Below, piece by piece: positions 30,001-56,000 of a stretch of DNA of 64,000 nucleotides. This DNA comes from an uncultured Planctomycetales bacterium (GTDB lineage Bacteria; Omnitrophota; Gorgyraeia; Zapsychrales; JAHFFX01). The stretch lies in contig CAZTCI010000001.1 in NCBI GenBank assembly GCA_964612665.1, positions 508,896 to 572,895 on the forward strand, given 5' to 3'. The position numbers and the translations under genes were made by a program. Each line of letters starts with the position of its first letter. Positions within the stretch are counted from its first letter, which is position 1. The notes under the pieces are model-generated. The model was not told the origin of the DNA and did no database searches. It was given only the letters and a program-made list of their open reading frames with translations.

Positions 30001-33000
30001 TTGCCGAACGGCTTGGTCATTGTGCATTGTCGCCCAAACACTATGCATGCGCTCTTCAGGAAATTCTTCTGTAATTCTGGTGTAAATCTTTGACATTTCA
30101 AAAAGCGGTTCGGCTCCTGCTCGCAAGAACACAATACGCGTGTTCTTCCGGTATTGCTTATTCTCTTCGTGGGATCGAGGATATTCTTTGATACGCATGA
30201 ATACGTGTTGTATGAAATCCATCAATCCCAGTCTGCGCTCGGCGCCATGACCCAAAAATGTCGTCAAATGTTTAGTATCCAAATAGTGTTGATACGCTTT
30301 GGCAAACATTGCTTGATCCCCCGCAGAAAAGATTCGTCCGAGGGATTGAATACTCTGATTACGCGCGCGAACATTATCTTCATGTAATCTGAGTCGATTT
30401 AATCTAACCGAGGCAATGGCCGCAAATCCTGCCAGGATTTTAAAGATCAGCATTACACCCTTGATGCCGATTATGATCCACGCGGCGTCGAGGGTGAGGG
30501 CGGGAAGCTTTCCAACATCAGATGTTGGAAAGGGCGGGTTCAACCTGCGGGGTTGATGTCCGTTGGCATGCTTCTCTTGCGGATGGGTGAACTTTTCCGA
30601 GGAAAACTTCTTTATATCTTGGTCGCTCCACTCTTCTCCAAACACCTTTTTTAAATCCGATTTATTTCCGTTCTTTCCGTTCCTCTCCTTCTTTGCCAAA
30701 TCGTCATAGAATTTTTTCATGATCTCATCTTGCCGACGATCGAACTCCTCGGCGGAGAGAGACCAGTCATCTCGCTCTCGTTTGTATGCTTCCTCCGGTT
30801 TCCGATTCTGATTTAACCAAACGTCCTTAAGAACATCGTAGAGATTACACAACATGCGATTCCCCGCAAATTGCCTTAATCCCTCCCGATTGTCCTTATT
30901 CTTCAATATAATGCGGGCCATTTTAGTCTTCTCGAGATCCTGCTTGAGAAGGTGAACTAGGGCTTCATGGCGTCCGAGGTTTATTTTGGCCTCCCCGAAC
31001 ATGTCTTTCACAATTTGAACAAAAAGCTCAGGACCGATCTCCCTCATCGATAGCCAGGCATGCAAGACGATTTCTACTTTTTCTTCCTCGCTTTGAATAC
31101 GATGATGCCAAATCCAGATTTCATCAGAATTTTTGAGACCGCCAGAGGCATGGGAAGATCGAGAAAGGTCCCCATAGATCACACCGACGACGAAGAAGAC
31201 CACGATCAACATTTGTATCGGCGAGAGAACCGTCGACTCCACTCCCAATCCCAAGGCATTCATGGCCGTTGGTTTCCCGGGCCCGCGGAATGCTGTGAGT
31301 TCATTCAACCTGCGGGGTTGATGCCCGTCGGCAATTTCATTCGAAGACTTGATGTGGCGGAATCCTCGGTCGGAGATGTTCAATGTGAACCCATCCTCAT
31401 CAGAGAAACTACTGTAAAACAAAATCTCCCGGGCCAAATACGTTTCGTTAAACTCGATGACCAGCGCCTCACGCTTTTGGCCCATCTCCAACAGATCGTT
31501 CCACAAGAATGTTCTTGAAAAACGAAGTTCGCCAGCACCGATACGAAACGTAATGATGATGTCATTTCCGATGAGCCGGCCTTTCACAAAATAGATCCCT
31601 TGATCTTCCGTCACAATCCGGATTCTGGAATGTCTCAACAGCGTTGAAATCGGCAATTTGATTACTTCTCTGATATGATAAACTTTCTGGAGGGAATATT
31701 CGGCGTAGAAGGACAGCTCGTCTGCATCTGGAAGATGAAGGATAAAGTCATGAATCGGCGGCAATCCGCAGGCGGAATTGGTGAGCATGGCCATGATCAT
31801 AAAACGGATCAGCGTCGGGCTGCGAGTGAAACCAGCGACCTTAAGCCAGAATAGCCATACGATCATTGCCGTAATCAAAACGGCGAGGAAATATGCTAAG
31901 AAAGCAGCTGATAATTTCTCCTCAGAAGACGTCTTCCACCAGGTATATTTTTCCTTCATCTCATGATAGGAATTCAAAATAAGATTTAACGTTCCCTTCA
32001 CGCTTTGTTCCGTTGTCCCCCGCTCGGTGCTGATGTCTTGAATCGTCCATCCATTTAAGATCAGCGTAATAATCTCGCGCTGCGGCGGCGACATTTGATT
32101 CAATAGGGCCCGACGATGTGGATCCAATGATTGAGAATCGCGGATAATTTCGCCCAGGATTTGTTTCCGTTGAGAAGCACCCGCGCCTTGGAAATGAATG
32201 TTGATGCCTTCATGCAGCGGATATAATTCATCGCACCTTTCTTCCCGTTCAATTTGTTCTCTTAGGGGTTTCAAAGACAATTCGTTCTTAAGATCACGGT
32301 ATCTGAGTAATCCTCGACGGGCGGTGATGATCACCGTAGTCCACTTAATCTGCAATAGTCGGGCCACATCCGCCGGATGATAACCTGCAATGGCAAACGG
32401 AAGAATTTCTCGCTCCTTTTCCTCCAGCTGATCAAAGATCTCTCGATGGTCCAAGAGAAAATCTTGTTTAACCTCTCTGAGAATATTGATGAATTCTCGA
32501 CGGTTGGGAGATTTCAGGAAGAAATTGAATTCCGCATCTCGATCGTTGCGGATAACCATCATGGCCAACATGCCGGGTAAAAGGAGTATGACCAAAAAGT
32601 AAAGGCCCTGTATTTCTATAAAAATGATCTGTGTAAACGCGATCAAGACAAGCACGGACGGGAATACGGCGGAAAGTTTTTCCACCTTCCGATCTTGCGA
32701 TGTGGGGGCCAACTCTTTCTCAACAAGCTCCCCACGATATACCATCCGCTGAACAAGGCCCATCGGATAATTGATTTCTTTTAAGTCACCCTTATAGGCT
32801 TCACGCCGGATAACTTCATTGAGCAGGCGAAGTTTCTTTTTGATCTTTTGGACCTGATCTTTTTCTTGCGCACTTAAACTTTGATGATTAACGTATTTTT
32901 TGTGAAGTGTATAATCGTAAACGCTGAGCGAGATCGTCTGTTGTTCTTCTCCAACAATAACGACATTACCTTGATCCCCGGCTGGTTCGATGAAGAATTG

Positions 33001-36000
33001 ATACACAATTCCCTCAGCATAGAGATAATATTGGATTTGTGCATGGCTGTTATTAAAAATGCGGATATCATCAACCGAAAGATAATGCGGCCCATCAGGA
33101 TGATTGTGCAGGTCCAAATAAACGAGGGGATAATCTGGATTTAGTTCCGGACCGACGGAATCCTTATCGCCTTTGACGATACTGTAAAGGTCCCCTTCCA
33201 AGGATTGATGGGAAACTTCAAAAGGTAAATATCCAGAGGCGACGGTGTAAAAACGATCAATCGCGCGCCAGAACTCCGGCGTCCCGACGGCCGCGGCAAA
33301 TGGTCGAGCGCTGTAGCGTGTTCCTTCCTTCGCACTAATAATATCCTGCTTTATCTGATCGAGCGTCATGACTGGCCGACGCTGGATCCGGGAGATAAAC
33401 TTCCGACGGATGAATTCCTGGGCTTCCAGTTCATGGACGGCCATACCGATTATCGCGACCGCCGTCAGGCCGAGCAGGCTAAGCCAATCGGTATAGGCGG
33501 AAAGTTTTTCCACCTTCCCAACCCCGGAGGTTGGGGAGGATAATAATTTTTGGCTAAGATCTGCAGCCACATCCAAGTTTTCCAACACTTTCGTCGCATC
33601 TTTAGAACTTTTAATAAAGACAACCGCCTGAGAAACCGCCGCCGATATTGTTTCTATTTCGCCGATCATCGGAAAACTTCTCTTCCAAATAGCAAACTGG
33701 TGATTCCACGCAGCCAAACGCAGTTTGATGGCCAGATACCTCTTATCGGCCCATAACTCCTTCACTTGATCTCGGGCATGGACCATCGACGGGATTCGGT
33801 CCAAGGACAGGAGCAATCTTTCCTGATTTTCCCGTCGTTGTGCTTCCTGAAGTTCCCGTAATTCTTTTCTAATTTGCTGTAGTTCTTTTAAACTATGGAA
33901 CAATTGCTCAGTGGACGGGCCTTTAAGGACCGTCCGCGACATAGCTGCTGCCATTGCCCCCATCCCAGCAGAGAGCAATATCTTTCCGACGGGGATTCCA
34001 AACCATAACGCGGTCCCCCCATCTACACCTACGAGGTAAAGATGGATCCCCACTCCATACAACGCCAGTGCAATCATGACGGATGGAAATATGGCGAAAA
34101 GTTTTTCCACCTTCCCAACCCCGGGGGTTGGGGAGGATCTGAGGATCACCGCCAGCATTTCAATTAGTCCAACCAATCCCTTAAACACAATCCAAATCCA
34201 CACGGCTTCGATCGTGACGGCGGAGACGTTCTCGATGGGATTGTGATCGAATTCTTCTAGCGCATCGATTTTTCCGTATAAATATTGGGCCAAATGGCGG
34301 ATATCTTTTCGATAGTCGTGCGTCTTAACCAAATCCCAGAGGTTCAATTGTTCCCATTGATCGCCGGCAGCTTCGAGAGCTGCTTGGATTATCTTTAACC
34401 ATTCCTTCGCATAGAATTCTCGATGACGGAAATTGGACGCCACAATCCAGTGCAGTAATTCTTCTTCGGAAGATGTCTTCAACATCTCAATCGCGGCCCG
34501 GCGTTTGGCTGGCGAAGTGACCACCAAATCATTCATCCGCAAATGCTCGTTGAGAATGTGCTTCAGGCGCCGAGTCCTGGCAGAATTCGCCAAGCTGGTT
34601 TTATTTGTGAAGTCATCAAGAGAATTGAACGGATTGTTTAGCTTGCGAACCATCACCACAAATTCGGTCTGCGTCATTGTAAATCCACTCAAAAGAAAAT
34701 CCACCTCATCAGCGTAATTAAGGAAATATAGAATTTGTTTTTTGGTGTTTTTCGGGTGCTTCTGCAATTCTCGACGATGTTGCTCCGCATTTTCTTTCTT
34801 CTCTTTTCGTCTTTCGTTCTCTTTCTCTAAATCCGCCCGTGCCCTTTCACGAGGATTCTGAAATAGAATCTCTCGACGGTTTTCGGACGTTCGTTCCCAC
34901 GACATCGCAAAGACAAAGATATATGCCAGCAACATCCACGGACTGAACAGATAAGTACGAACTCCGGAATGATGGACGATTTGTTTCTGTGGAGTTTCTT
35001 CTTTAGTTGACAAGCCAACTTTCAGGGCTTGGGCGCGGCTGGCGGAGAGGTAAATCAACCGTTGAACAAACATGCCCGCGATCATCAGCACCGTAAAGAC
35101 ACTCATTCCCGTCGATAAATCGATCGTCACGGCGCGGTGTTTTTCGATATCAGAAGAACGACTTGGTGTTTTATCTTGTGCATTCAACCTGCGGGGTTGA
35201 ATGGACATCCTGTTCCCCTTCACACCTCCGAGGCGCGAAAGAGCATTATTTCTTAGCTTTTTACGAATACTTATAATTTTTAACACTGAACGAATATGCC
35301 ATTCTCTTAGCCCCAACCGCTCTTCCCGGATTTCTAATCTATCCCCAGGATATTTTTCAAAATCTGCAGTCACAATTTCGATAAGCCGTTCCCTTTTTTC
35401 TAGCTTTTCTCTTAAACGCACTCCCGCGGCTTTCTGCTTTAAGAACGTTAAATCATAATCCGGCCATATTTTGCTAATAATGTAATTCGACACTTGTTCA
35501 ATGTATTGATGCGATGATCCCATCTGTTCGACAATGATGCTTGATGATTGATCCAAAGCTATTTTGCGGACTAACACTTCTTTTTGCGGGAGCGTTAGTC
35601 CATACCTATCTCCTATATCGTTAAGGGTCCTTACAAGTCCTTCTTTAGTGATGGCATAGCCACTACTCTCCATAATGTCGCGAGCAAAACTTACTCTATT
35701 ACCATGCTCCATCGCTGTCTCCTGAGACGATAGAGAAGATCGGTATTCCTGGATCCCTTTTTGGCGATCTCGGTTTCGCGCATATGTATTTCGTTCGCCT
35801 CGAATTTTTAAATTAATTCCATTAACGACATATGTCAATAAGCCTACGCCATTGCGCCGATCAAATTTGATCACACTGCTGCGAATAGTTTTAATGAAGT
35901 CATCTGTTCTTTCCTTTAGGAAGGATCTATTCCATCTCTGTTTAACTAAGGGCATTTCTGTCAGACCGGCGATGAGGACTTCCATCGCCAAACCATCTTT

Positions 36001-39000
36001 CTTATCTTGAATAAGGTCAATTAAACGGCTCTGTTGCTCACGGCTTAAATATCCTCTGGAATGACGTGGCATGCCCAAGATCGTATTGACAGCGGCTTCA
36101 TCTCTTTGCTGAGGAGCCCAAATAATTTTAAGTTTAGACTCTTTAATAACCGGCACAGGAGGATTCAGCCCGTACCATTTCTTCATTTCATAAAGAATTT
36201 CTACTGAGCTTTTTCCTTTTAGATCGTGATTTTTTGCCCAGTTCAGCAGAAGCCCCTCTAAACATTTTCCTCCAAACCCTGGAATACCTGTATGAATAAT
36301 ATCGCCCACTTTTAAATCTACTATCTTCCCTGCACGGCGATGATTGGCTAGATGTTGAAGGATCGCCCATTGCAACCGCTCTTCAAGTTTGTCCCAGGAG
36401 AATTTCCTCGCCCGTCGGAATTGATCCAATACCGTTTCCAATTCTTCAAGGGTTACTGGTTTTTCTTCTGCCATCGTCATAAGAACAGCAGATGCGCAGA
36501 GGACTGCTATCCACGCTTCCGCACCTACGAGGTGCTGATGGGTAACCATGGCGACGAAAGCGGCGGAAATGATGATAAAGCGGAAGACTCCGTCGAGGAA
36601 ATCATTCAGTCGGCTGGGTTGAACAAATACAATTCGACGCAAAATGGAATTCACATTGTCTTGGCCGACATACGCAAGCGCCGCCGCAATTCCTACCAGA
36701 ACAAAAATCCATAAGGATGGACCAACGGCCATCAGTTTTATCTCTCGATCCCAAAACTGACTTGGCCCACACCGGCGGACAACAAATTTCTTTTCCAAAT
36801 CCTCTTTGACCGTCGTCACATCTTCTTGGACGATCGCGTCCGCCACACGTAAAGAAAATCCCATTTGCAGGGCCTGACGGCCGGGCATGGATGGGCTATA
36901 TCTCAAGCGAAGCCCCTGAATCAACGCGCGATAGGGCGCTTCCTGTCCCCGGAGAAACTTAAGGAAGGCAAACTGTTTGATTTCTTTGGTGGATACGGAG
37001 GTTTCAATATTATTTCTAAGATACGCTAAAAATTCTTTGTAATAACTGACCCAGTGCTCAAGGATTCTTTCCAGCCCCAACTCATTTAATTGTTTGTTCA
37101 AACGATTTGTGTTCCCAAAGACCAAATCTGTCGGTTTAAATTTATCAAATGTATCGGAGGTAATAGGACTCAATAAACAGCGCTCATTTAACGTTGATAC
37201 ACTGAGCTCATGCTTTTCGCCCCCGATTCTGACCCACCGCCCCAATCCCCGTCGGGCCAGGGCAATGAGATATTCGGGTTCGATATCAAATTGATCTTTC
37301 CCTTGATAATAAACGTGAATGTCCAGGTCCTTGATCATGGACCACAATGGGATTTGATTTTCGCTAAAAAGATAGGTCGAGGAGCCGGTGACCGTGATGA
37401 TCGGAGCCTCCACAATGGATAACGTAGCGACTTGCTTTAGAAGTTCGATTAAATCGACCGGCGGTAAAGCTGGATTGTCTGGCTGAACAATAAACTGGCG
37501 CTCAGGACGATAGTAGGAAATGTGTTCATCTTGGTCCACGATCAAAACAGGCCAATGCACTGTTTGGACCGCCGCCAGTAATATCAGCGCGTAGACCGCC
37601 TCGTTCAAACCGATCAGATCTCCGTGGGCCAAAAGACCGGATAAAGCCGCGAGGATGGCGATAGGGCGGAAGAGTTGTGCGATCAACCTGCGGGAGTGAA
37701 CAGACTTGATAAAGCGGAAAATTCCGTCGAGGAATAACATCACCCTCTCCGACGGCGGCGAAGTCTTGAGAAATTCGTAAAACGCGCGGAGGTTTTCAAG
37801 GATGACGCGGGATTTGGAGATTAGAACAGCGGCCATCAAAACAATAATGAGAATTTCCGCGAGGTGAAACACATTATTCGACGAAAAATTTGATTTTCTC
37901 GTCGGTCTTATCCGTGCAGTCGAAAGGAAATCGATTCGATGGGCGTTCAACGTCGCGGCATCTAATAATTCAAACCCTGGGAATGTTTGATCGACGATAT
38001 GTTTAATCAAATCCGCCAACTGATCCGCAGGGATTTTGATTAGATATCCTGGAATTCGGTGCATCTGCTGAGGACTAATTTCCCTCATCTCTTCTGCAGT
38101 CAAAAATTGAACCGCGGCCATCGATACAACCCGGCCTTCTAATCTGTTGACAGTCCATTTTCGCGACATTATACTTTGAATCGAAAAGGAGATAGATTGA
38201 TGACTTCTCTTCAAGATGCTATGAAAATCATTAAACCGCTTCAAAACCGTTTCAAGAAAAGCCATAAGTCCAGAAGAAAAACGAAGATTGCCGACGATCT
38301 TTTGGGTGCGTTCAAAGGTGCGACCGAAGGTAAATCTTCCAGTCAATGTGTTCGAGAATTGAGAAATTCTTCTTATGGTAAGTTTAAATAACCCTTCCTT
38401 GCTCTTGGACTCCGATGTCCTTGTCAGCTGGTTGACGCTCGAAGAAGATATTCTTACCCATAAAAAGCTCTGGGAAGCTCCCCACAAAATAATGACAATG
38501 GTTGAGGAAAATTCTTCTCTCGGTTGTTCAACGATTATCAATCTTATGGAAATCAGGTTTGTGTTGCGTGCTAAGAAGAAATTCAGTGAGCATAAGATTA
38601 CATCTTCTCTTAATAAACTCTCCGAGATTCTGAAGCTATTCATTCCAGATGAAATCAACCTATTAAAGGCGAATGAACTCCAGTCCAAATATCTTTCATT
38701 ATCGCCAACCGACGCTATCCTTCTGTCTGTGGCCACAACCCTAGACAATGTTGTCCTAATCACCCGCGATCGAGAATTATTGAAAGCTGCCTCAAAAATT
38801 GTCTCCGCATCAACTCCTGAAGAATTTCTGGCGAAACGCTGATCTCTTCTGTTCCAATAAAAATTCCCCACCAGCATTGCAATTAGCCCAACCACTCCCT
38901 TAAACACAATCCAAATAAAGCGGAAAATTCCGTCGAGGAATAACATCATCATCTTCGACGGCGGTGAGGTTTTAAGAAGTTCGTAGAACGCGCGGAGGTT

Positions 39001-42000
39001 TTCGAGGATGACGCGGGATTTGGATAGCAGAACAGCGGCAACCAAAATAATGATTAGAATTTCCGCGAAGTTAAAGGAGTTATTCGTTGGAGAATTCGAT
39101 TTACCCGTCGATCTCGTGGCGAGAGCTCTGCTGTCCTGAGATCTTCTTTCTGTGGTGACGAAAGTTCCTACCCTTCTTAAAATTTTGATAACTCTATCCC
39201 TTCCCTGAAGGTTATTAGAACTCTGTCGAGATTGGGGTTGTTCAACGATCGGCAAAGTGACGAAAAAGCTGGCGCCCTGGCCCAACTCGCTCTCCACATC
39301 AATCTCTCCATTGTGCGCCGTAATAATGCTTTTCACAATGTAAAGTCCCTGGCCGGTCCCGTCTTTTCCTTTCGTCGTGAAATATGGCTCGAAGATTTTA
39401 GAGACCAGCTCGGGCGCGATCCCGGGGCCATTGTCTTTCACCTCGAATTGCACGAGGGGCGCATTGTCGATTGGCGTGACGATCAACTCAATCTTTCCGT
39501 CTGGTATCTGCGCTAAGGTATACACCGCATTCTTTAGGAGATTGATAAACGCATGCGTCATCTGAATTTGTTCGACATCGATTCTAATCCCGGCGGCAGC
39601 GGAAAAATCAATCTGAAGTTGCTGTGGATCGAAGAGAGCGAAGATCTCTTCAAAATGTCCTCTAAGATTAGTCAAGAATTCCTCGACGGAAATGACTTTC
39701 TTCTTACCTTTCCCGGAATAACTGAGATAAAAATCAATGATTATTTTAAGCCGGTGGGTAACGCTGTGGAGGGTTTTGAGGACTTCACGCTTGGCTTTAG
39801 GCTCAACGATACCTTGATCGATATTTTTGTCTTGCGGATGCTGGCGGAAATCTTTGACGAGCTGCTTCCAGGCGCGATGAAACTTTTTCAGTTCAGGTAA
39901 ATCATCGAGAAGGATTTGCAACGCCAACATAATTAACCTTTCGCGCTGTTCTTGTGTAAACGGTTGGGCATAATTTTCAAGCACCTGTTGTAATGCCGGA
40001 TTGAATAACCCACCTATTGGCCTTTTCTCTCTTAAAGATAAGGTTGTTCTGTCATGCTCGGGGAGAAAAGGCCTAATACTAGACTTTTGCAATGCAAAAG
40101 TCAGTAATAACTCCGCTCGCTGTTCTCCTGTAAGCAGCTCAGCATATTTTTCAAGCATCGCCCGTTTTAATTCTGGGTTTGATAATGACTGAATATCGAC
40201 ATAAGGTTGATCAGATGCGGCATGGTTGCGAAGAATCTTCAAATCATTAATTTTCTCGAGAAGATTTAAATCCATAATATTCTCACTCAAAGATTGCATA
40301 GCGGATTTGAATGGTTCCGGCAAAATATCGGCATTACCGTTTGCCGGATCAAAGAATAAAGTAATCACGGTCAAATCATTGCCGATTTCATGCAGGAAGA
40401 CCGGCCCCAAATCAGCGATGATCCCCTGCCAATAATCTTCTTTTGGTATCCGCATTACCATAACGACAACCATCGATAGTCCCAGCAGCCAATTGAACGG
40501 CATAATGTATACGGCGTTTCTCTCGGTTGGGAGCTTCATAAATACATATTCCCTTCTGGCCACTGTCTGAATTTCAAGACCAAGCGGCTTTCGGTTTAAC
40601 GTTTTGAGCATTTGGGTGATAAAGTTTATCCGCCGCAAAACTGATGTGATCGGCATGCTGCTGCCATCACCCAACGTCGTCCCTGGTTTTTCTTCCAGCA
40701 GCATCTCCATGGTCTGCCCAATAACTGTCAAGGCCCCGGACAGATTTATGACGACGGGCCCGTCTGTAATAGAATTTCTAAACGCCGTCCCCATCACATT
40801 GCTTTTCCGCACTAAAGCGATCAAATCCTTGGCCTTTGGTGTCGTATCATTGCCAAACACAGGGTCGGATTCTGCCTCCTGCTTGACGTTTAGCATTGCT
40901 TCCAAAATCAATCTTGCGGACTCGCGTGCCCGTGTCGGATCTCCTAACGCTTCGCGTTGGCCATTAACAAATTTAACGAACTTAACCAGCTCCGTGCGCA
41001 GAGCCTTAATCCATTGCGGCCATTCTAGGTAATAAAATAATTGTTCCAGGACTGCCATAATAAGGAGCGTGCGTTCTCCGACGGGTTGGATTGGATTTCT
41101 AGATATTTGTTCTTCTTTCTGTTCAATGTCTAGAATCAAATGCCAGACTGGCTCTACAAATGCTTTCCTCTCAAGCAAGCCCCTTGTATATTTGAAGAAA
41201 TCATTCTGAGATTCATGATGACGCAATACTCGACGGGCAGCCAAACGGGCCATGGGATATTTCATGGAGCCGATTAAATCAGTCAACGTAAGATAATTTT
41301 TTACAAAGCTGCGCAATCCTGGCTCTTCAATCAATCCTTTAAACTCAATCAGCTCGGAAATAAAACGGAAATAGAAAACAAACCGTTCTCCGCCGGCCTT
41401 ATAAAGGATCCGTTTCCTTCCCGTGGCGGAAATAGGCCTATCATTTAAAACTTCGATCAGCCAAGCAGCGATCAAAAGTCTTAATGCCTCCATGTCCTCA
41501 TCCTCAACCGGCCCACTTAAAATCCACGCGCGTTTTTCGTCGGTGGAAAGGGCCAGGAGATTATCGAGACCAGTATACTGGCCGCGCACCGCCATCAAAA
41601 ATACCGGAGCGCTCAGCAACATCAAAGACATTCCCATCCATAAAACGGTTTTGATGGCGAGTATAACCAACATCAATCCGCCCACGGCGCCGACCAAGGC
41701 GATGGAATGCAATTTCTCCTCGAGCTGCGCGATTTTATTTTCTATTCCATTTGTCTTTTCAGATTCTTGGTCTTTCTTCCCGTTTCCATTCAATTCAGTG
41801 GAATACGCTGTCAGAGTGAATAATTCTTTTAAGTCCTCTTCCCATTGCTTATGAAAAGGAAGGCTCTCTGCATATTCCTGGAAGAGACCTGCGCGCAGCT
41901 GACGCCACACCATATGGTCGAGCAAGACCTGACCATTGATGACAAATGCCTGCGCAAAGTGTCTTAATTCCTCGACGTAGGCCGGATATTTCTGTGAGAT

Positions 42001-45000
42001 CTTTTGTAAAGAAGACAATTCCTCGGATAGAGAATCTTTCTTAAGCAAAGCATCCACGTATTGTTCAATCTGTTGGCTTTTAGCATAGTCATGGTCTTGC
42101 GATAAACGGATACGTTCTTCAATACGATCCGTGGCTGTTTCAAAAGCAATGATCCAATCGGCATCAGAACCGGAGAATTCCGAGACATAGCTTGATACCC
42201 TGGACTTTAATAAAAGCCTGTGCGTCGTCCCGGCCTCACCGTTACGGGCGATACGGGCCATGATTTGTCGCATATCACGTTTGGAAAAAAGAACGTTGTA
42301 AAGAACAGCCACAACGCCGGAGGCAACATTGGTCAAAATATTCACCCCTCGGCCTCCCATGGGACTGGTAATAAGAATCGTAATCTGTAAGCGGCCTTTC
42401 TGGTTAATAACATAACCGGCCTTTTCAAATTGACCGGCTTCTTCCCTGCGCTTTTCAGGATTTTGATCGATCCCTAAAACAGTCTCAATCTTGATATCAT
42501 TGTTGGGCCGGCCTCTTTCCAAGATGGCGTTTAATAGTTCCTTGACATGATGGGCCGAAGCGATATCTTCCGTCGCGATAAAAACCGGCCTTCCTGACAA
42601 TAAAGCATTCATAACAATTTCGATTAAGCTTTGGTCCATCTCTTCCACGGTCTCATATCCGATGGAGGAATGATCAACCCGGATGGATTTGATATCGGAG
42701 GGTTGAACATACACTTGCATGTTCAATCTTTTCTTTAAATGCTGTTCAATCGTCGGACTCATCTCTGAACCACTGACCGCGGCATAGCCATGTCTATACA
42801 ACTTTAAAAGGGAGTGATACGTCAAGGCCGCCAAAAGCCGGCGCGGATTCTTTTCATTGTCGATACCGGAACGCGCTTCTATCATACGTTGTACCTCGGG
42901 AGAATAAACACGCAAAATGTCCGGGCGTTTACTATCGTCGGGAATAGGCAATACATTTTCACGTTTAGCATCTAAACAAAAATCATGATCCTCTTTAAGG
43001 TTCCAGCCAATCACCGCAAAGTCCGCCAGCTGACGCAAATGCGCATCAGAGATTTCATCTAATTCCCGACGATTTCTAAGAAATTCCATAATCTTCCGCG
43101 GGTCACGCCAAACCACTTGTCTTCCCTGATCGGAAGAAATAATCTCTTCGGGATTCGTAGCCCAATCTTTCAACAAAAAGAAGACGTCCTTATCAAAACG
43201 ATGCCACGCTGTATAGGCTGCGATAATTCTCTTCACTAATTCTTTATCCTTACCGTTGACGATGATGTCGATCGACAGAGTATTCAAGACGGAGAAGATA
43301 TCCCAAAGATAATAATCCGCCTCATCCAATAAAGCCCGACGATCAATGGTCAATGGTTGTTCTAAACTTTTTCTGGTCGAAATTTCTCGCGCCAGGGCTG
43401 TTAAAGAAATATATCGGATCTGTGCTTTGCCGGCTTCAGCCCAGAGAGAGGAACCAAAAAATCTAGTGAACCTTTTTGACTGGCCCGGAATAAGTAGTGT
43501 ACGGGACCCTTCGGTGATGCAGCTTACGGAATGCCCCAAAGAAGCCAAAATCCCGGCCTGACTGTTAAAGCCGTCTTGGGCCAAATGATCTGTCGTGGTG
43601 ACGATATCCGTTGATACACCCATTTTCTCCAGAGCATCGGCCGCCATCGACAAGGCCATGGTTTTTCCGGCGCTGGTATCAAACTTGACAAAATATCCCC
43701 GCGATCCGTCTTCGGTCCTCGGTTGCATCAAGAGTTCAGCAGTTTTAAGTTGTGCGGGGCGGCGTTGATACTTAATCATAATATTCTTATCAGCCATCCT
43801 TCGACGCGCAATGACCTCAAATTCCTCTAATGATTCCCTAATTACGTCGGGAAAATATTCGCTCAAGGATAAAGGCAGATCGGTCCACGCCACGCCATTT
43901 TGTATCGATGTTTTAATAATTTCTTTTTGTTCACTGAATACGTTCAGTTGAGGGGTGGGAGTCTCGTCGATCTCCCCAATGATATTCGCGGGCGTAGATA
44001 AAGATTCCATCTGAAGTCTTTCTGCCTCCTCTTCCAACGGCGAAACTTTTTCCGGACGCTGGAACTCAAACGACATCTCGGGTTCAGGAGGCTGAAAAGC
44101 AATTCCAAAATAATGGGCGAGATGATGGACTGACTTAAAGAATCTTTCCATTGATATCTCAAATCTTCCTTGTTCATAATTCTTCACTGACGACTGGCTT
44201 AATTGTAGAATTTCGGCAAATTGAGTTTGAGATAAGTCCAGCTCCTTACGAAGATGGGTTAAATTCAAGAGATATTTTTTCAGTAAAGCATTCTGTTGGC
44301 TGTTTGGAGAGGATTTCGCTTCTTGTTGAACATCATTGATGAATTCTTTCACTTCCGTCGGGACCTCACTGGAAACATTGTCCATTAAGAAATCTATAAC
44401 CTTCTTCATTGACTTTGCGCTAAGTTTCCATGCCTTGGCAGAACTTGCGTGATCTACAATATATTTTTGCCCTCCCATCGACGCGATCATTGTCTCGACA
44501 GAGTATCTCTGCTTAAAACGATTTAGTAAATGCTTAATCGGCTCGCTCAATCTCTTAAAAATTTCGCGTCGTTCTTCTCTTGATGCACGCAAAGCTTGTG
44601 CATACAAAAGCTGTATCTGCTGCTTCCACTGCTTAATGTCTCGAGACCACTCACCAATGGGCTGAACATCCTCATTCTGCCCACCGAAAGTAGAGATGAT
44701 GATAGATTCATCGATGAGCTGAACATTCTCATTCTGCTCAAAAGCGATAGGAATCTCGTCCGCCTCTTGTAATGAAATCAAGCTAGAGATTGGCTTTTCT
44801 TCTTCAATGAACTGAGTATCCTCATTCTGCTTACCGATCAAACTTTCATCGACCTCAGGCAAAGTTAATTCAAAAGTCGTTTCTTCATCGCTTTCTGGAG
44901 TAAGGATGATGATAGATTCATCGATGAACTGAACATTCTCGTTCTGCTCAAAAGCGATAGGAATCTCGCCCATCTCCCCAATTCCATTCGTGGGCGGAGA

Positions 45001-47013: not shown

Positions 47014-47061
47014 TAGCTCATGGAAAAATTCCTTTGTGTCTTGAACGATGACCTTCCAACT

Positions 47062-50000
47062 CAGCCTGGTCCTCCATGCCCGTTTCCACTCCATGACCAA
47101 GATGAGGAATTGAATCAAAATAATCAGGCCTGTTACGATTGTGATGACAAGATCGGCCGTCGGTGAAAGTTCCTGTTGGGGCACCACATAGGCCGCCTCG
47201 GTCAAGCTTGGCAGAATCCCCTGCAAAAACAAAACGCCGGCAAGCACCAACAACAGCGCAATAGCCACGAATACGAAATCAAAAATTCCTGCTACCGTTA
47301 CCAGATCTCCAAATCTCTCAGAAAACTTCGAAGATAAAATCCGTGCATTCCAGCCAAACGGAGAAACGAGGCCTTCATCCCCTAGGTGGATTTCCGGTAA
47401 ACGTCTCAAATCCAAAATCAAATGATCCTGGCCAGCCACTTGGCGTTCTTTTATTTGGTAAATTCCTCTGAAAAAGTCATTGTTCCGTAAGAGAAGATAA
47501 TCAAATTGGGCGGCTAATGTTTTAAGGAAATTGTTTTCTGGTTTGAAGAAGTCCCGCGCTCGACGGTACATTCTTTGTTTGGCCTGCGTTTTGTTCAGTC
47601 CTTCATGTTTTTGATAATAGGCGCGCACGGCCTCGTGGTTATATCCGGCCATATGATAGACGCCGAGCTTAACGATCCTTTCGTTGAAATAAAGCTCAAG
47701 CGATACGAGACTTGACTCTTTAGATGATCCGAATAGATCAATCGAGACAAGATTTAAATTTTCATTAACCTCAATCTGTTGAACACCGTCCCAATCGTGA
47801 GTTAATTCCAAAACCCATTGCTTGAAGGATTCTGATAATTGATCATCATTAACAAATCGCATCGATGCCAGCGTCGAAGAATTTTGGTCCATCATTCCCG
47901 CGGTAACAAAAATCATCGCCCACAACACCCCGATTCCACCTACGAGGTGGAACGTGGTCCAAACGGCGATTAGGAAGGAAGGTATAACGGTGAAGCGGAA
48001 TAATTGATCGAACAGCGGCGCCGAAATCTTCGCCGGGACTTGGGTACGTTTGGCGGTATTTATAATCAACACAATAATGACAACCGCCAGCGCCAACATG
48101 GTAACAGCAAGAAATTTCTTATTTGTTGATTCAGGATTGCTTTTTTGGACCGATGGTAAGGATGTCCACGGCATTAAGACTCCATCGACTGAGAATCGCG
48201 CTGCCAAGGCTTCCGGCGACACGACGTAATTTTGCGGGAGAAATATATCCGCCAGAAAGTTCGGGTCTTTTTGACTTCGACCTTCTGCAGTTTCTACTCT
48301 GATCAGTAAAGAAAAGACATAAACCTGAAGAGGTATGACATTTATATCTGTCTTTGCGTCTTTCAAGACGGCTCCGATATGATGGAAACTAACAATCTTA
48401 TAAATTGTTTCATCATCAGAAAAAGCAGCCGTATCGTGGAGAACACCCGCCAACCATTCTCCATAACCGATACGCTTTTGAAGGTCCATGAGATGCTCGG
48501 ACCGGATGCCTCCAGCTTTCTCATATTTAATATCTTTGATATACCCTGCCCCTTCCATTCGCATAATTATAGCGGCCATCACTTTAATAAAGTCGCCAAA
48601 TAAAGTATGCGCCAAATCCTCCGACGGAATATCAGATACATTTCGAACACCTTTCTGAGCGTAATGTTCCAGTATGCTAAAAAAGGCCTTACGACCTTCT
48701 CTCAATGAGCGACCGAGATAAGGAAATTGAGTTAAATAATCGGCACCCGCCAGTTCCTTGACCAACATGCCAAGAAGAATCGTCTTTAAAATCTTGCTTT
48801 CTTCGCTCGAATCCTTTGTATAACGAATTAAAACAGGAATAATCCTCGGATTAATTAGAAAATCAAATTCAAGATATCCTTCACTGTTGATTGCGAATCC
48901 TTGATCTGTCATCTGGGGAACAATCGCGATGGGTGATTTGGAATCTCTGGGAAGAAAATCAAACTTACCGGTCATTCGCTTTAGGATTTCAGCCCAGCGC
49001 CGTTCGCGCTCATCGGAAGAATGAGCCCATTGAGCGGCTGTTGTCTGGAAAAATTGTCTAATAACCCGTTTAATTTCTTCGGGAGAATCAGGTAAAGATT
49101 CCTTTTCCTTGCGGGAAACAGCAGGAACGGAATTCGATGGTGCGGCAAATATGAGCGTTGATGTAAAGAGGAAATGAACGGCCGTCAGAAGAATCAAGAT
49201 CTTCTTAGAAATCGGCGGCGGTGAATTCTTCTGACGTTCAAAATAGCGTCGAAACTCGCTTAGACTCATCAATCCGCCGGCGAATCTTCTCCCAATAAAT
49301 ATAAGCATTACAACAACCACGCCCAGAATCGCATACCCATCTACACCCCGGAGGTGTAGATGGGTAACAGGATTTTTCTCTGACTCAAAATCACTTTCAG
49401 CAAAAGCACCTTCCAAAAGTGCGCCGACACGTTTCAGCCAAACATCAAAGTCAATCGCTTCATGCTGTGCCAACCACATAATGGCCTGCTCGAGCACTTT
49501 CACATGCCGAGGAAGTGCTTTTTGTTTCCAGGCCGGTAACGCGTTATAGGCCATGACATCCACTTGGACGCGGGCCGTTGTCCAATTTTCCTGTATGAGC
49601 AATGCGCGTACACTGCGCAAGACGTCTGCGCAATTTTCTATACCAATCGCATCAGTGAGAAATATGTCGATGTGCGTTGCATTCTCTTCTTGGGCTTCTA
49701 CCTTGGCCCATACATGAACAGCCGAAAGGTCGCGGTATTCAGCGACGACGGAATTCACCAGATCAATCAACGCGCTGCGGTCGTCGCGGTGCATGGTCAA
49801 TGCAATGTCCTGATTTTCCAAAACATCTTTGAGATGAAGCAGGAAGCTTACAACTTTATACGTGCCGGCCTGCGCAGCGAGTTCGATGCCTCTGGAGACA
49901 ATTTCCATGCGGACAACTGGATTGCGAAATTCAACAGCTGTCAGACCTAAAAGATCGTTGAGCGCAACAACGCTCGGTGATCTGTGAATCTCGTCGGATA

Positions 50001-53000
50001 ATTGATTCATAACAGTCAAGACACGATCCATTTCTTCTGTTTGAGCTTCGATAGCCGCTGACAAACCGTTAAGTATGTATAAAATCCAACGGAATTCTGG
50101 ATTATATTGCTTAGTCATCGCTGATACTATTGCCTTCGCCTGTCGAAGCGGCGCTCGAGCCAGATCTATTTGATCATTTGAATAGTGACTCCAGGCCAAG
50201 TACACGTAAGCAGCCACTTTTTGCGGTTCTAAAATATTTAATGATGTGATCGACGTCCAGCGTCTCACAGCTTCATCATATTCTTTTTGTTCAAAACTAA
50301 TTCTAGCCTGAGCGATTGCGGTCAAAGACAACACGCGGCCCTTTATGCCCAAATCGGAATACTGCTGGCTCCATGCTTTCAGAAGCCTGATTCTCTCGAC
50401 GGCAGATTCGAATTTCTGTTCCGTAATATCTATGATGATTCTGTAATAATTGGCCAGAATGTCCAACTCGATATAGCTAAAGTGGGGATGAAACTTCTGG
50501 GTCAGCATTGGCTGATAATGTGTCACATACCGATTGTTGATAGCGAGCGCCTGCACAAACGCTTGATTAGCTTCTACATAATGTTGCTGATCAAAATGAA
50601 TCATGCCTTTAAACAACGTAAACCATGCTTGTTCCAAGGAATCATCAGGGAATTTTTTGATCGCTTGATCGGCGGCCTGCAAAGCGGCTTCAAATTCTTC
50701 AAAAAGGGCCAAATGTAAGACCTTTCCAGTCAACTGCACAGACATGTCATCATCTTTTTCTGTCCTTTGTACCAAAACGCTCTGTTCCTGACGTGACAAC
50801 CATATCTCGACGGCATTTTGCACTTTCGCGACATCCAGGTTTTTCACTCTCGTCGCTTTCGAAAGAACAGCGCGTACCGTCGCTTCGTTTTGAATGCCAG
50901 CGACCAATGTTCTTAACTCCTGATCACTCGGCTGACCGCTTGGCAGATTCGGCAAAACATTCCGCAAGGCTCGACGCAGAGACGCATAATCTGTTTTGGG
51001 TCTGCCGGATGATATGGCCATGGCGAATATGAACATCAACAAGATAACCATCTCTAAAGACACAGGGTGGGCTTGCATCTGGTTGTTACCGTCGGCCAAT
51101 CGCATTGATCGGTTGTGTTGCGGATGTTTTGTTGCCAGGTTATTCTTTTGTGGACTGCCACTGACGACTTGTTCTGCCGCGATAAGACATTTCGTTCTGT
51201 CTTCTTTAGGTAGATACAAACACTTCACAACCAAATCAAGATACTGTCTGGCCAGCTCTGGATTATCAGAATTACTGCTCATTTGTCTAGTACGCTCGAG
51301 TACTATCCCCGCGAGAATGAGGGTTCCTTGTGGCCCTGTCCATAGAATGCGTCTGGCTTCCACGTTTTCTAATCTTTCTTCCGGTCGGAGAATTTGCCGC
51401 ACAAGAAAGCGGCCGGATTCAATCCAATCCAGCTCATCACGATTCCAGGCAATACTGCCATCCGCCGCCGCGTTCACGGCCCGGTAAGCGCGATTAAATG
51501 AGGTGTCTTTGCTATACCAAGGAATATTGCTCAAGATAATTGACCCGATGAAAAACACAACAACAGTCCTGCCGGTCATATTCAACAATCGTCTTATCGA
51601 TTCTCGCCATGACCATCCTAGCATCGTCGAGGGCCTCGCAAATTCCCGATGACTTTCGAAGTAATCAGAAAGCAGTAACCACACAACAAAAACCACAAAC
51701 AACCAAACACCATAGTGCTCAAAGAACGGCTGTATCAACTGTATATCGAAAAGATAATTCTTGTTTTCGACAACTTTGAAAATCTTCCAATCATGAGTTG
51801 AATAAGATCCTAAAGGATCTGTGCCGATAGACCCTTGGGCCACTTCTACCAATTGCCGTCGGGCTTTGTTAAGCAGTGTATTTAATTGATGCAGGTAGAC
51901 CTGAGTATCTTGCCATTCGATTGAAGATCTTTCTCCAGTTTGTTTATCGGTAACTTCCTCATAGTGCGTATACCATCCGACAATAAAATAACCGTTTAAT
52001 CTTAATATCCGCGCGATTGAATCAAGCATGCGTCTTTTAACGTCTTCCTTAATATAAGGACTCGAAAAAATGCTCATGGCAACGATTACAGCCACTGACT
52101 CTTTGCCTAACAAACTGTTTTCAAAATAAGCTTGAGCCCGTGGAAGGACCTGGAGTTTAGGCTCTCGGGCTGCACGGTTCTGCCAAATTTCATGGGAATT
52201 AATTTCTAGCGGATTGGCATCGGAATCATCGGAGGGTTGATAGATGATCAATTGATCGATGTGACAAAGAAGCATATCCTCCCATGGGATCTGATAAAAG
52301 TCTGACGGATTAGCGCTGGGTCCGATTGAAACCGCCCGCTCCCATCTGGATTTTTCAAGAGCGTTAATGGCGTTTCGCGCCCGCTGATAATACTCGGGGA
52401 CAAACCCGCTCGCCAAAAGTTCGCGTATACGAGTTCTCCTCTGCATTAGATCAATCCGCCTTTGCCGTCGAATTTCTTCCTGAAACTCTAAAATTGAACC
52501 TCGAGGATGTGCCCCTGTTATCCGTGCCCAAATATAATTCGCCCCAAGAACGAGGAAACCAAACACAATAATCAGGATTATTACTGCGGTTGAGTTATCA
52601 GGGATAACATTCTGCTGAATGAGAACATCCGTGATCGCTCCGGATGAGATGGCGCGATTAACTTGGGCGGTACGAGGAGAAGGAATCGGGATAATCTGCT
52701 CGCGCCATGCCATCAGCGGTTGATTAAACTCCACATTTGGATTTCGGAGTTGGACGGCTTCCCACATCATCTGTCTGATCTCTTCCTGCCTAAACTGACC
52801 ATCAAAATAATTATGTGAAATACCGTTGAGGTTATGAAGCCGCAATAAGGCGTTAACAAAATTCATAAATAAAGAGTTGTTACCTTTTATCATAAGGTTC
52901 ACGGCACGATTATTCAGATGTCTAGAAGAACCGATATATCCATTGATAATAAAATCAACGATTTCAGCCAATCTCAAATCGGAGGCTTCCGGAGTTAAAA

Positions 53001-56000
53001 TAGGAATGAAACGTTGCCAGATGGCTGCCGATAGTTGTAGAGAGAATTCTTTGGGATAACGTGTTGTTCCGGCGACGAAGCGGATGGAGCGTTCGTCCCG
53101 CTTTTGGGCGCCGATCATGGTGGGGGTGATGTAGTATGAATCGCCCAGTCCGATGATAACAATTTTGTTCAAGTACCGGAACCATTGCAGAATGTCTTCT
53201 GGACTGCCGATTGTTCCTTCGTTTTGTGCCAGAATCATCTTTAGAATTTCTGGCCTTACAGTTTTCTGATTTTTCCAGTAATTTTCTTGGTTGGGTGTTT
53301 CGGGCCTAATTTGACGTTCAGGAAGTCGAATAACTTCGTTCCAAGGCACCTCCAAGGCCTTTGTAAAATTAAAATAAGGGAATGCTTCTTGGAATCTCTT
53401 CGCCAGATTTTCATGGTCTTCTGCAGAATCCCCCGCAACACTACCGACGGCAACCGCCAATGCCGCTGCCCAAACCCAAGCGCCGGACAATCCGGCCGTC
53501 CATAACTTAATCAGTGCCATGATTACAGCAGTCACGGCAACCGGCCCTGCGCGAAGTTTGATTGTCAGGACGATAATCGCCAGAATAACGAGGAATCCGC
53601 CGATGAGATACGCCGATGATTCTTCTTTTTTGCTTGAAGTATTTTGAACGAGACTCGAAATCGATTGTGCCTTCTCTTCTTCCGCTTCCTTGCGCAAGCG
53701 TTGCCACATCCTTCGAGTTTGTGTTTGAAATCTGGGAGTTTGAACTCGTCGATATAATTTATTCAAAATATATTTGGCTTCCGATGATAACTGATGAGAT
53801 TGCTGCACCAACTCCCCTTGACGCAGGTTCAGCACATACTGCAAATCTTCTTCTCCTAATAAAAATGCAAAACGCAATTCTTGCAATAAAACATGCGGGT
53901 GGGCATGCATTTCTTCATAGTACCGTGACAGTAATCTCATTCTAGCCGCTCTTCCTCTTGACCAAGAAGGATTGAACACCTCATTCCAAATATTTCTAAA
54001 CGAATCAGAAATAATTTCTCTCCACGTTGTGCGATACGATAACTCCAGAATTCCGTTTCCGCGATAGCGCGTGTGATCGTAAACCATCTCAAATAGCTCA
54101 TGGACAAATGCAGCCTTGTCCCTATTGGGCGACGTCGGTTTGGGTTTCTGGTAATAGAATTGTCCCGATCTGAGGAATTGATTTTTGAGCGCAACCCAGA
54201 CTTGGCCTCCCTCAGTCACATAAAACATGTCACTCAAAAATGCGTACTCGGGTCCTTCCAAAAGAATGGCCCCTAACGTTTGGCCGAATTCATCGAAGCT
54301 CATCGCCTTGATCTCGTTGATCGTGCCCAGCCGCGCAATACGCAGCCAGGCCTGGTGAATCAAACGATCATCGTGGCGTTTCATTGGCCGATAATCTCTA
54401 AAGTACCAAAACAATAGCTGTGTCACGGATATCGCCAGAATATTAACGGAGAAAGGATAATTTTTAATTTCTTCCATAAGCAACGAAGCCATCGTCATGA
54501 TGATCGTCGGCGCGGTTAGGTGCGTCACACCCACTACGACGATGATGATAAGAATCGCTATCGAACAAACCCATAACATTCCATGCAGTTCCTGCTCGGA
54601 GGAATTTGTTTGAACCTTCTTCGCATTGGCGTTGAATTGTTTTCCAAACACCTTCTCCTGCGCCTCTTGAGCAGAAACTTTGTCGGCGCGCAGATTAATA
54701 TATTCGAGCGCGAGATCTATTTGATGACCACTCAATTCCCACGCGATGCCGGCGAGGATCAGGCCGTAGGCTTCTTCGTGATTTTCGATATCGTTCAGCA
54801 CCTTCTTAATGACGGCTTCCCGTTGATCCACATCTCTGATTCCCGCCAAGGTCATGGCGGTCTCAATTAACTCACGGTCTTCTTCCGGTTCGATTGTGTT
54901 CAATCCATCAATGGCCATCCATTGCACATATGTACGGGCATGCTTGTAGGGATCCGTGATCTCCTGCGCCCAGGAGACTTTGCTAGACAACACAAAGGTA
55001 GCAATTAGAAGTAGCAATTCTCGACGATGAAATGCAGATCTATTTTTTGTGCTGATAGAAGATGTATTCGTGATTGTAGTTGATCGGGTGTAAGATTTGA
55101 GGAGCCAAAGAAGAAGGACAATCAGCAGGAGATCAATACCTAACGAAACTATCCAGACTTTTTGTTTTAATAAATCTTCAAAATCCGAAAGACCATCATC
55201 TTCCTCATCAATTTCTAAATTATTCTTACTTCTCGCCATCGAGATCATACTCATCGTTTGGTTAAACAATACCTCTGATCTCCGCTCTTCCTCTTCTTTC
55301 TGTGTCAAAACTTTGGGCCGCAGTTGCTGCTGTTCGGCGATCGCCATTAATGTTCCAAAATAAATCGGATAAAGTGAAGATGATTCTCTAAGAATCAGCA
55401 TGCCGTGACCATCATGGAATTCTCTATTTTTGAGCTGCTGAATCTGACTTAATGTTGCCAGGGCATTCATCGCTTGAACAGTGAACGGCTCATCGTATTC
55501 AATCGCCTGTTGAACAAATTCTGCCTTCAAAATTGGACTGTCAGCGTACGCATGAGGATTCGGTAAAATGATCTCAACTTGGATATTACTTTCTGCATCC
55601 TGATAAATAAATCGTGTGGCTCCATCCACTATCTCCTGAGTTAACTGATCAAACCTGATGTCATGACGCAGATTTTCTGTCGTATAAATCATGACATCGT
55701 TATAAAGGGTGAGGACGGCTCTTGAGATTTGACTGAGCGCATAACGGCCCCCAATGTCATCCATTTCAAGATCAGACCCATCCAGAACTTGAGTTTCATC
55801 CGCATCAGATCGTGGAGCATTAAATTCAGCGATTAGACTTTCTATTCCAAACTTTACCATTCCGAAAATTTCATCCAAATCCGCCTGACGAACTTTCACA
55901 TCAAATTGGCGTCCTGAAGAATATATACTTGAGGCTCTTTTTAAAAAGTAATCGATAAACTCTTGCTTATCAACTCCTGTATTTAAATCTTCAAAATTTT

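Follow-up and report, generated by a model that had tools for sequence, protein, structure and literature searches.

Divergent SecA DEAD and preprotein-binding domains have been described in most giant proteins of the Omnitrophota, and in some actinobacterial ones, as modules without the scaffold and wing domains, and self-export has been proposed for these proteins (West-Roberts et al. 2023, 10.1101/2023.11.21.568195). Among 916 long Omnitrophota proteins, a PF07517 architecture cluster has been reported, as well as a regulatory module of methyltransferase and HATPase_c that resembles the content of the DNA studied here (Nielsen & Lui 2026, 10.64898/2026.06.07.730766). Here we analyse a stretch of 64,000 nucleotides (the window; contig CAZTCI010000001.1, positions 508,896 to 572,895) from an uncultured bacterium placed in the Omnitrophota. 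The window is filled by part of a giant gene, a minus-strand open reading frame (ORF; 1..63999) that, read from plus-strand coordinate 63999, has no stop in 21,333 codons and exits through both window ends. This ORF encodes a multi-pass membrane protein with a SecA-type motor inside it (42130..43851, minus strand; ORF residues ~6717-7290), which, judged from its sequence, appears to be a complete but extremely divergent SecA-family ATPase motor lying in a cytoplasmic loop.

The module is built of two nucleotide-binding domains (NBD1 and NBD2) separated by an insert at the position of the SecA preprotein cross-linking domain (PPXD), and all its motifs are read on the minus strand. The original prediction, made for the span 42180-43760 (ORF residues 6747-7274), had claimed a Walker A, a DYLAQ-like segment, a DEAD motif and helicase motifs V and VI in SecA-like order and spacing, and each of these was found in the translation. 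The homologous region begins ~30 residues before that span (residue ~6717) and is succeeded by a long helix that extends to residue ~7329. A Q-like motif, 'RRPAQL' (residues 6746-6751), is followed by Walker A or motif I, 'DTSAGKTMAL' (43651..43680; residues 6774-6783, with the lysine at 6779), whose G, K and T are invariant in comparison with SecA. Motif Ia, 'VTTTDHLAQDG' (43570..43602; residues 6800-6810), the counterpart of SecA 'VTVNDYLAxRD', sits 26 residues past the GKT, the same distance as in SecA. Walker B or motif II is 'LLDEADYYLWD' (43300..43332; residues 6890-6900), with D, E and D invariant in the alignments. Beyond the insert comes motif III, 'AAVSGSEMS' (42757..42783; 'AAVSGSE' at residues 7073-7079), which takes the place of SecA 'GMTGTA' in the alignments, and then NBD2 (42175..42732; residues ~7090-7275). 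NBD2 has 'GRPVFIAT' (residues 7136-7143), a stretch like the SecA-specific 'VLNAK...EA..AG', motif V 'ITSPMGGRGVNI' (42337-42372; residues 7210-7221) with one invariant arginine, and motif VI 'RQIMARIARNGEAG' (42226-42270; residues 7244-7257) with two; these three arginines are residues 7217, 7249 and 7252.

Successive motifs are spaced 26/88/183/141/31 residues apart in the module and 26/76/181/118/62 in the canonical SecA P0154; the last interval is ~35 in B. subtilis SecA, as counted from the alignment. The columns that are invariant among the module, two giant-type modules (P0002 and P0054, described below) and SecA are exactly the catalytic ones, namely the Q-like glutamine, G-K-T, D-E-x-D, the R-G of motif V, and the Q, both arginines and the G of motif VI. 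The module keeps every residue that is needed to bind and hydrolyse ATP, namely the lysine of Walker A, the aspartate and glutamate of Walker B, and one arginine in motif V and two in motif VI. Two strongly conserved SecA signatures, 'TNNEFGFDYLRDN' and 'DEARTPLIIS' (the latter normally just after Walker B), are absent from the module in the alignment.

In all sequence and profile searches SecA came first, as the original prediction had expected, rather than a generic SF2 or restriction helicase. The best NCBIfam matches were all SecA or SecA2 models (secA TIGR00963, E 6.5e-14), with scores below the cut-offs for whole proteins of these families (51.1 bits against 800 for TIGR00963; 50.9 against 814 for PRK12904). 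Pfam SecA_DEAD matched the module with 25.2 bits (gathering score 24.6) and P-loop_SecA matched NBD2 (E 6.9e-5), whereas the generic helicase models were far weaker (DEAD, E 0.01; Helicase_C, E 0.077) and ResIII had no match to the module. Only SecA and SecA2 were found among PDB chain sequences matching at E <= 1, and phmmer against B. subtilis SecA (1m6n) gave E 7e-9 across NBD2. BLASTP aligned the module to the SecA-like protein P0001 with 23% identity over 529 residues (pairwise E 2e-16). When the three giant-type modules (that of the window, P0002 and P0054) were compared as a profile with 29 canonical SecA sequences, hhalign returned a probability of 100% (E 1.2e-45), and the match was co-linear with SecA residues 60-696.

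An exhaustive HMMER scan of 1.84e9 representative proteins gave 207 matches at E <= 0.001, the best of them at 4.9e-12 and 26% identity. Among the best 150 of these 207, at least one SecA signature (GEGKT, NDYLA, DExD, MAGRGTD or RGRxGRQGD) was present in 138; the remaining 12 were 8 short fragments (193-607 residues) and 4 divergent or otherwise unmatched proteins. The top match, P0002, is one of the 12, and carries just a generic G.GKT.

Two AlphaFold2 models of the module were built from shallow alignments of 9 and 10 sequences. Their mean predicted local distance difference test scores (pLDDT) were 50 and 59, with 60-88 in the RecA-like cores. In a Foldseek comparison with the PDB the first 36 structures were all SecA or SecA2 (E 1.7e-16 to 8e-10), followed by DinG, MDA5 and RIG-I at E >= 5.5e-8. 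These fold matches are not independent of the sequence evidence, because the input alignments of the models consisted of SecA homologues. We consider it almost certain that the module is a SecA-family motor, and the alignments indicate that it is homologous to SecA over its whole length, NBD1, PPXD position and NBD2 included. It is predicted to work like the SecA motor, from which it descends, yet it lacks several of the features that define the SecA family proper.

The insert (42778..43290, minus strand; residues 6904-7074) lies between motifs II and III and has the size and position of the SecA PPXD, with 183 residues from Walker B to motif III against 181 in SecA. Its C-terminal half (residues 7005-7046; 42862-42987) is recognisably SecA-like, and the ~45 residues at its end, 'HDFCLDAKRENVLPIPDDSKR...VQRMIEARSGI', align with SecA 'DYIV.DG.V.IVDE.TGR...GLHQA.EAKEG'. 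Pfam SecA_PP_bind (PF01043) had no match on the insert, and hhalign of the isolated insert with SecA gave a weak match over the last ~46 columns only (P 0.007, probability 5.5%). The search for SecA-specific insertions, namely PPXD, scaffold (HSD) and wing (HWD), therefore succeeded in part: an insert of PPXD size is present at the right position and half of it is recognisable, while neither HSD nor HWD was detectable. The region after the motor, compared alone with SecA HSD and HWD in hhalign, had no similarity to them (probability 0.6%), and the SEC-C zinc motif (PF02810) was matched neither in the module nor elsewhere in the window ORF. The sole candidate for a scaffold, a low-confidence one, is a predicted helix of ~48 residues after NBD2 (42013..42156, minus strand; residues 7282-7329; residues 543-590 of the second AlphaFold2 model, pLDDT ~50-60), which stands at the place of the SecA scaffold helix and has no detectable sequence similarity to it.

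The alignments make the module an apparent extreme long branch. No close relative was found in protein collections or, by protein pattern, in genome_contigs, metagenome_contigs and viral_contigs; an exact 45-mer had no match in the first two of these contig sets, and word-indexed protein searches yielded few relatives (1, 8 and 10 matches). Identity does not exceed 26% over the best match of the HMMER scan or 23% over the full-length BLASTP alignment, and pairwise BLAST places the module at about the same distance from giant-type as from canonical SecA sequences (29-73 bits). The nearest relative, P0002, has 1,932 residues and nearly fills its 6-kb contig, being a fragment of a larger ORF. P0054 (locus L001; JGI 3300001380 contig, gene 227-20200) has 6,657 residues and 32 membrane-like segments, and contains methyltransferase domains, the SecA-like module and then a Sigma70_r2 domain, while P0022, annotated as Candidatus Omnitrophota, is a partial protein of 5,059 residues. 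P0160 and P0161 (loci L002-L005), stand-alone proteins of ~1,500 residues that are annotated as hypothetical, have a SecA-like motor without SecA_SW in their N-terminal part and 4-8 membrane-like segments in their C-terminal part; no functional hint came from those of their gene neighbourhoods that were examined. In P0054, two repeated units with a sub-threshold HTH_8 match (E 0.0099) lie upstream of the SecA-like module, and its gene is followed by a ParE/MazE-like toxin-antitoxin pair.

The module shares with the SecA_DEAD modules of giant Omnitrophota and Actinobacteria proteins the divergent motor, the PPXD-like part, the lack of a detected scaffold or wing and an apparently very long branch, and also its setting next to membrane anchors in an ORF that is tens of thousands of codons long and rich in membrane helices. 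Unlike those modules, the window copy is without a close relative in the collections searched, and the recognisable content of its host in the window is regulatory or DNA-binding and metabolic, not of the glycoside-hydrolase or dockerin type. Neither West-Roberts et al. 2023 (10.1101/2023.11.21.568195) nor Nielsen & Lui 2026 (10.64898/2026.06.07.730766) mentions helix-turn-helix (HTH) or sigma domains. The module matches the published description of giant-protein SecA point by point, and the idea of self-export is itself the published hypothesis. Since such modules were already described by West-Roberts et al. 2023, we regard this one as a new, extremely divergent member of a described kind.

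With canonical SecA (E. coli and B. subtilis; PDB 3bxz and 1m6n; TIGR00963) the module shares all the catalytic motifs of NBD1 and NBD2, in unchanged order and with little difference in spacing, the SecA-specific 'VLNAK..EA..AG' stretch and, at the PPXD position, an insert whose C-terminal half is conserved. It differs in its 20-24% identity, in the absence of a detectable HSD, HWD or SEC-C, in an N-terminal lipid-binding region that cannot be aligned, and in being part of a giant polypeptide and not a free soluble protein. SecA2 (M. tuberculosis, 4uaq; C. difficile, 6sxh), in contrast to the module, keeps the scaffold and the two-helix finger; it is a stand-alone protein and scores far higher on SecA models. 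The short or membrane-fused proteins P0001 and P0158 (~630-660 residues), P0160 and P0161, like the module, have SecA_DEAD and P-loop_SecA without SecA_SW. A PPXD is found in three of these four, P0161 having no SecA_PP_bind match. All of them are much closer to canonical SecA than the module is (112-295 bits on SecA_DEAD against 25), and they are of normal size, unlike its giant host.

The motor had been predicted to be embedded in a giant membrane protein, and the reading frame bears this out. A stop-free frame of this length is not due to chance, the expectation being (61/64)^21333 ~ e^-1024 by our own arithmetic. About 40-70 membrane-like hydrophobic segments were seen in a hydropathy scan of the window ORF; 70 non-overlapping 19-residue windows reach a Kyte-Doolittle value of at least 1.8, as against ~20 in shuffled sequence. 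The motor itself lies where membrane segments are missing for ~1,390 residues, longer than anywhere else in the window. This stretch is bounded upstream by a cluster of hydrophobic helices (45859..46071, minus strand; residues 5977-6047). On the other side, 140-160 residues past the end of the motor and ~100 past the post-motor helix, there is a hydrophobic hairpin of two adjacent membrane-like helices (41584..41703, minus strand; residues 7433-7472; 'IALVGAVGGLMLVILAIKTVLWMGMSLMLLSAPVFLMAV'; Kyte-Doolittle peaks of 2.34 and 1.94), which is likely to be a membrane tether.

Directly N-terminal of the motor, in the same loop, are two tandem XRE-type HTH units (43957..45669, minus strand), copies of a 241-residue unit at residues 6111-6347 (44959-45669) and 6441-6681 (43957-44679). 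The copies have 75% amino-acid identity (E 1e-108 in self-BLAST), and HTH_3 matches them in two stretches with E 3e-18. Since the loop holds these DNA-binding domains together with an ATPase, we infer that it lies in the cytoplasm, where ATP is available. Both copies contain an HTH_3/HTH_19 domain of the XRE type along with a weak stretch resembling Phage_int_SAM_4, and their duplication is much younger than the rest of the repeat structure of the ORF. The upstream HTH unit had no similarity to the regions upstream of the SecA-like modules in P0054, P0002, P0009 and P0022. We did not adopt 'HTH-SecA' as a conserved architecture, because the upstream regions are dissimilar and the HTH_8 match of P0054 is below threshold.

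Export in cis, with the motor helping to thread the extracytoplasmic parts of its own giant chain, is the explanation that we favour, as one that is possible rather than probable. The motor would hydrolyse ATP, and the clamp between NBD2 and the PPXD-like insert would grip unfolded polypeptide. The membrane helices of the chain would hold the motor at the membrane, in place of the lipid-, SecY- and SecB-binding parts of free SecA, and the motor would then help to thread extracytoplasmic segments of the same chain, or later-translated ones, through the SecYEG or YidC of the cell. Tethering is supported by the hairpin after the motor (residues 7433-7472) and the hydrophobic cluster before it (residues 5977-6047). 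A recurring architecture is supported by P0054, where the SecA-like module follows 32 membrane-like segments, and by P0160 and P0161, where the motor precedes 4-8 of them. In membrane proteins, large periplasmic loops are translocated by SecA, and the SecA2 of M. tuberculosis functions without the wing domain. Self-export seems plausible, in line with the published hypothesis.

Several points weigh against export in cis. Every recognisable domain of the ORF is cytoplasmic in type, apart from the TPR repeats, which are uninformative on location, and this weakens the case for self-export within the window. Many of the hydrophobic segments occur in close pairs, able to insert without SecA, so that a large exported passenger is not evident in the window. 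There is one motor for at least 21,333 residues, phmmer with the module having found no second copy in the rest of the window ORF. Scaffold and wing domains were undetectable, with no PF07516 match in a Pfam search of the module and the ORF, and since no scaffold, two-helix finger or wing can be detected, the elements by which SecA pushes polypeptide and docks to SecY are unaccounted for. The N-terminal half of the insert is unalignable and unrecognisable, and the insert has a pLDDT below 50. The AlphaFold2 models as a whole are of low confidence (pLDDT 50 and 59) and were built on alignments of SecA homologues.

The motor might instead be tethered to the membrane and export, in trans as SecA2 does, a dedicated set of other proteins and not the giant chain. 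We regard this as rather unlikely. No candidate client or partner gene is visible, the window being a single ORF, the scaffold and two-helix finger are undetectable, and the genomic contexts of P0160 and P0161, where the motor is also fused to membrane segments, are uninformative.

It is unlikely, too, that the motor has been repurposed as a non-translocase, either an ATP-driven conformational switch or a nucleic-acid-dependent ATPase working with the neighbouring DNA-binding HTH units. The two XRE-type units directly upstream in the same loop, the richness of the whole ORF in HTH, sigma and LuxR domains, the pairing of the SecA-like module of P0054 with Sigma70_r2 and a weak upstream HTH_8 match, and the loss of the translocase-specific scaffold and wing would all be consistent with such a role, and binding of RNA, as well as weak helicase activity in vitro, is known for SecA itself. 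However, the similarity of the module is highest to SecA, over SecA-specific segments, and not to nucleic-acid helicases, and the HTH_8 match in P0054 is below threshold (E 0.0099). The association of HTH units with the motor may be coincidental, because sequence similarity is lacking among the units that precede the motor in the window, in P0054 and in P0002.

It is improbable that the module is a captured secA gene in decay, with no ATPase activity and serving as structural filler. Extreme divergence (at most 26% identity), rough equidistance from all SecA lineages and the loss of the conserved signatures 'TNNEFGFDYLRDN' and 'DEARTPLIIS' would be consistent with decay. Yet all the catalytic residues are kept, and they coincide with the columns that stay invariant between the module and other giant-type modules of 23-26% identity; the motif spacing is preserved and the reading frame is intact. 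A generic SF2 helicase, whether DEAD-box, RecG, type I/III restriction or defence helicase, can practically be dismissed, given that SecA models and structures came first in every search, ResIII had no match and PADLOC reported no helicase.

The other domains of the giant ORF are HTH_3/HTH_31, TPR repeats, Sigma70_r4_2 (31987-32109), GerE/LuxR (13450-13587), HATPase_c (39247-39570), a receiver domain (Response_reg, 577-879), transketolase N and pyrimidine-binding domains (8395-9960; partial, the N domain covering profile positions 98-216 of 334), DAO/NAD_binding_8 (20302-20490) and a SAM methyltransferase (Methyltransf_25, 4000-4179). The ORF of this giant membrane protein is studded with DNA-binding and signalling domains typical of soluble cytoplasmic regulators, and domains of housekeeping metabolic enzymes (transketolase, DAO/NAD_binding_8 and Methyltransf_25) are embedded in it as well.

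Internal protein repeats with 25-78% identity also run through the ORF, several of them with hydrophobic helices and a recurring motif of the 'W.W/IIVFKG..G' type. The paired copies are at residues 20-348 and 1861-2179, 3536-3733 and 5746-5938, 8296-8362 and 8698-8764, 11881-12007 and 12793-12917, 12051-12145 and 12513-12595, 13683-13724 and 14054-14095, and 15390-15492 and 15493-15603. Because no tandem repeats were found at the DNA level, we take these for old duplications. Scans of the window for tRNA, Rfam families and tandem DNA repeats were all empty, as was the PADLOC scan, which found no defence helicase.

Reassignment of a stop codon was rejected as the cause of the giant ORF, all three stop codons being absent from the frame. 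Outside this frame the ORF listing of the window has only short antisense or out-of-frame ORFs. Small plus-strand ORFs under the SecA-like module were rejected as genes, being 115-155 residues long, antisense and within the 64-kb coding frame. The sole ORF of at least 200 residues outside the giant frame (20245-21168, plus strand; 307 residues, TTG start) is antisense to it, lies where the GC content of the window is highest (0.51) and is probably a chance antisense ORF.

More speculatively, the motor, its scaffold, wing and finger having been lost, could bypass SecYEG and use the membrane helices of the giant protein as a self-contained device for insertion or translocation, or it could couple the DNA-bound HTH or sigma-like modules to membrane insertion; we consider both versions improbable. 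If true, the coupling would be a built-in link between gene, nascent chain and membrane, and either version would be a new use of the SecA motor.

Since the idea of self-export was published in 2023, the value of the present module lies in confirmation and detail, not in discovery. It shows how far a SecA motor can diverge, with the catalytic core and part of the substrate clamp being kept; residues ~6717-7330 therefore make up a minimal construct. A built-in motor of the SecA type is the most concrete lead on how cells produce one chain tens of thousands of residues long, insert it and export it.

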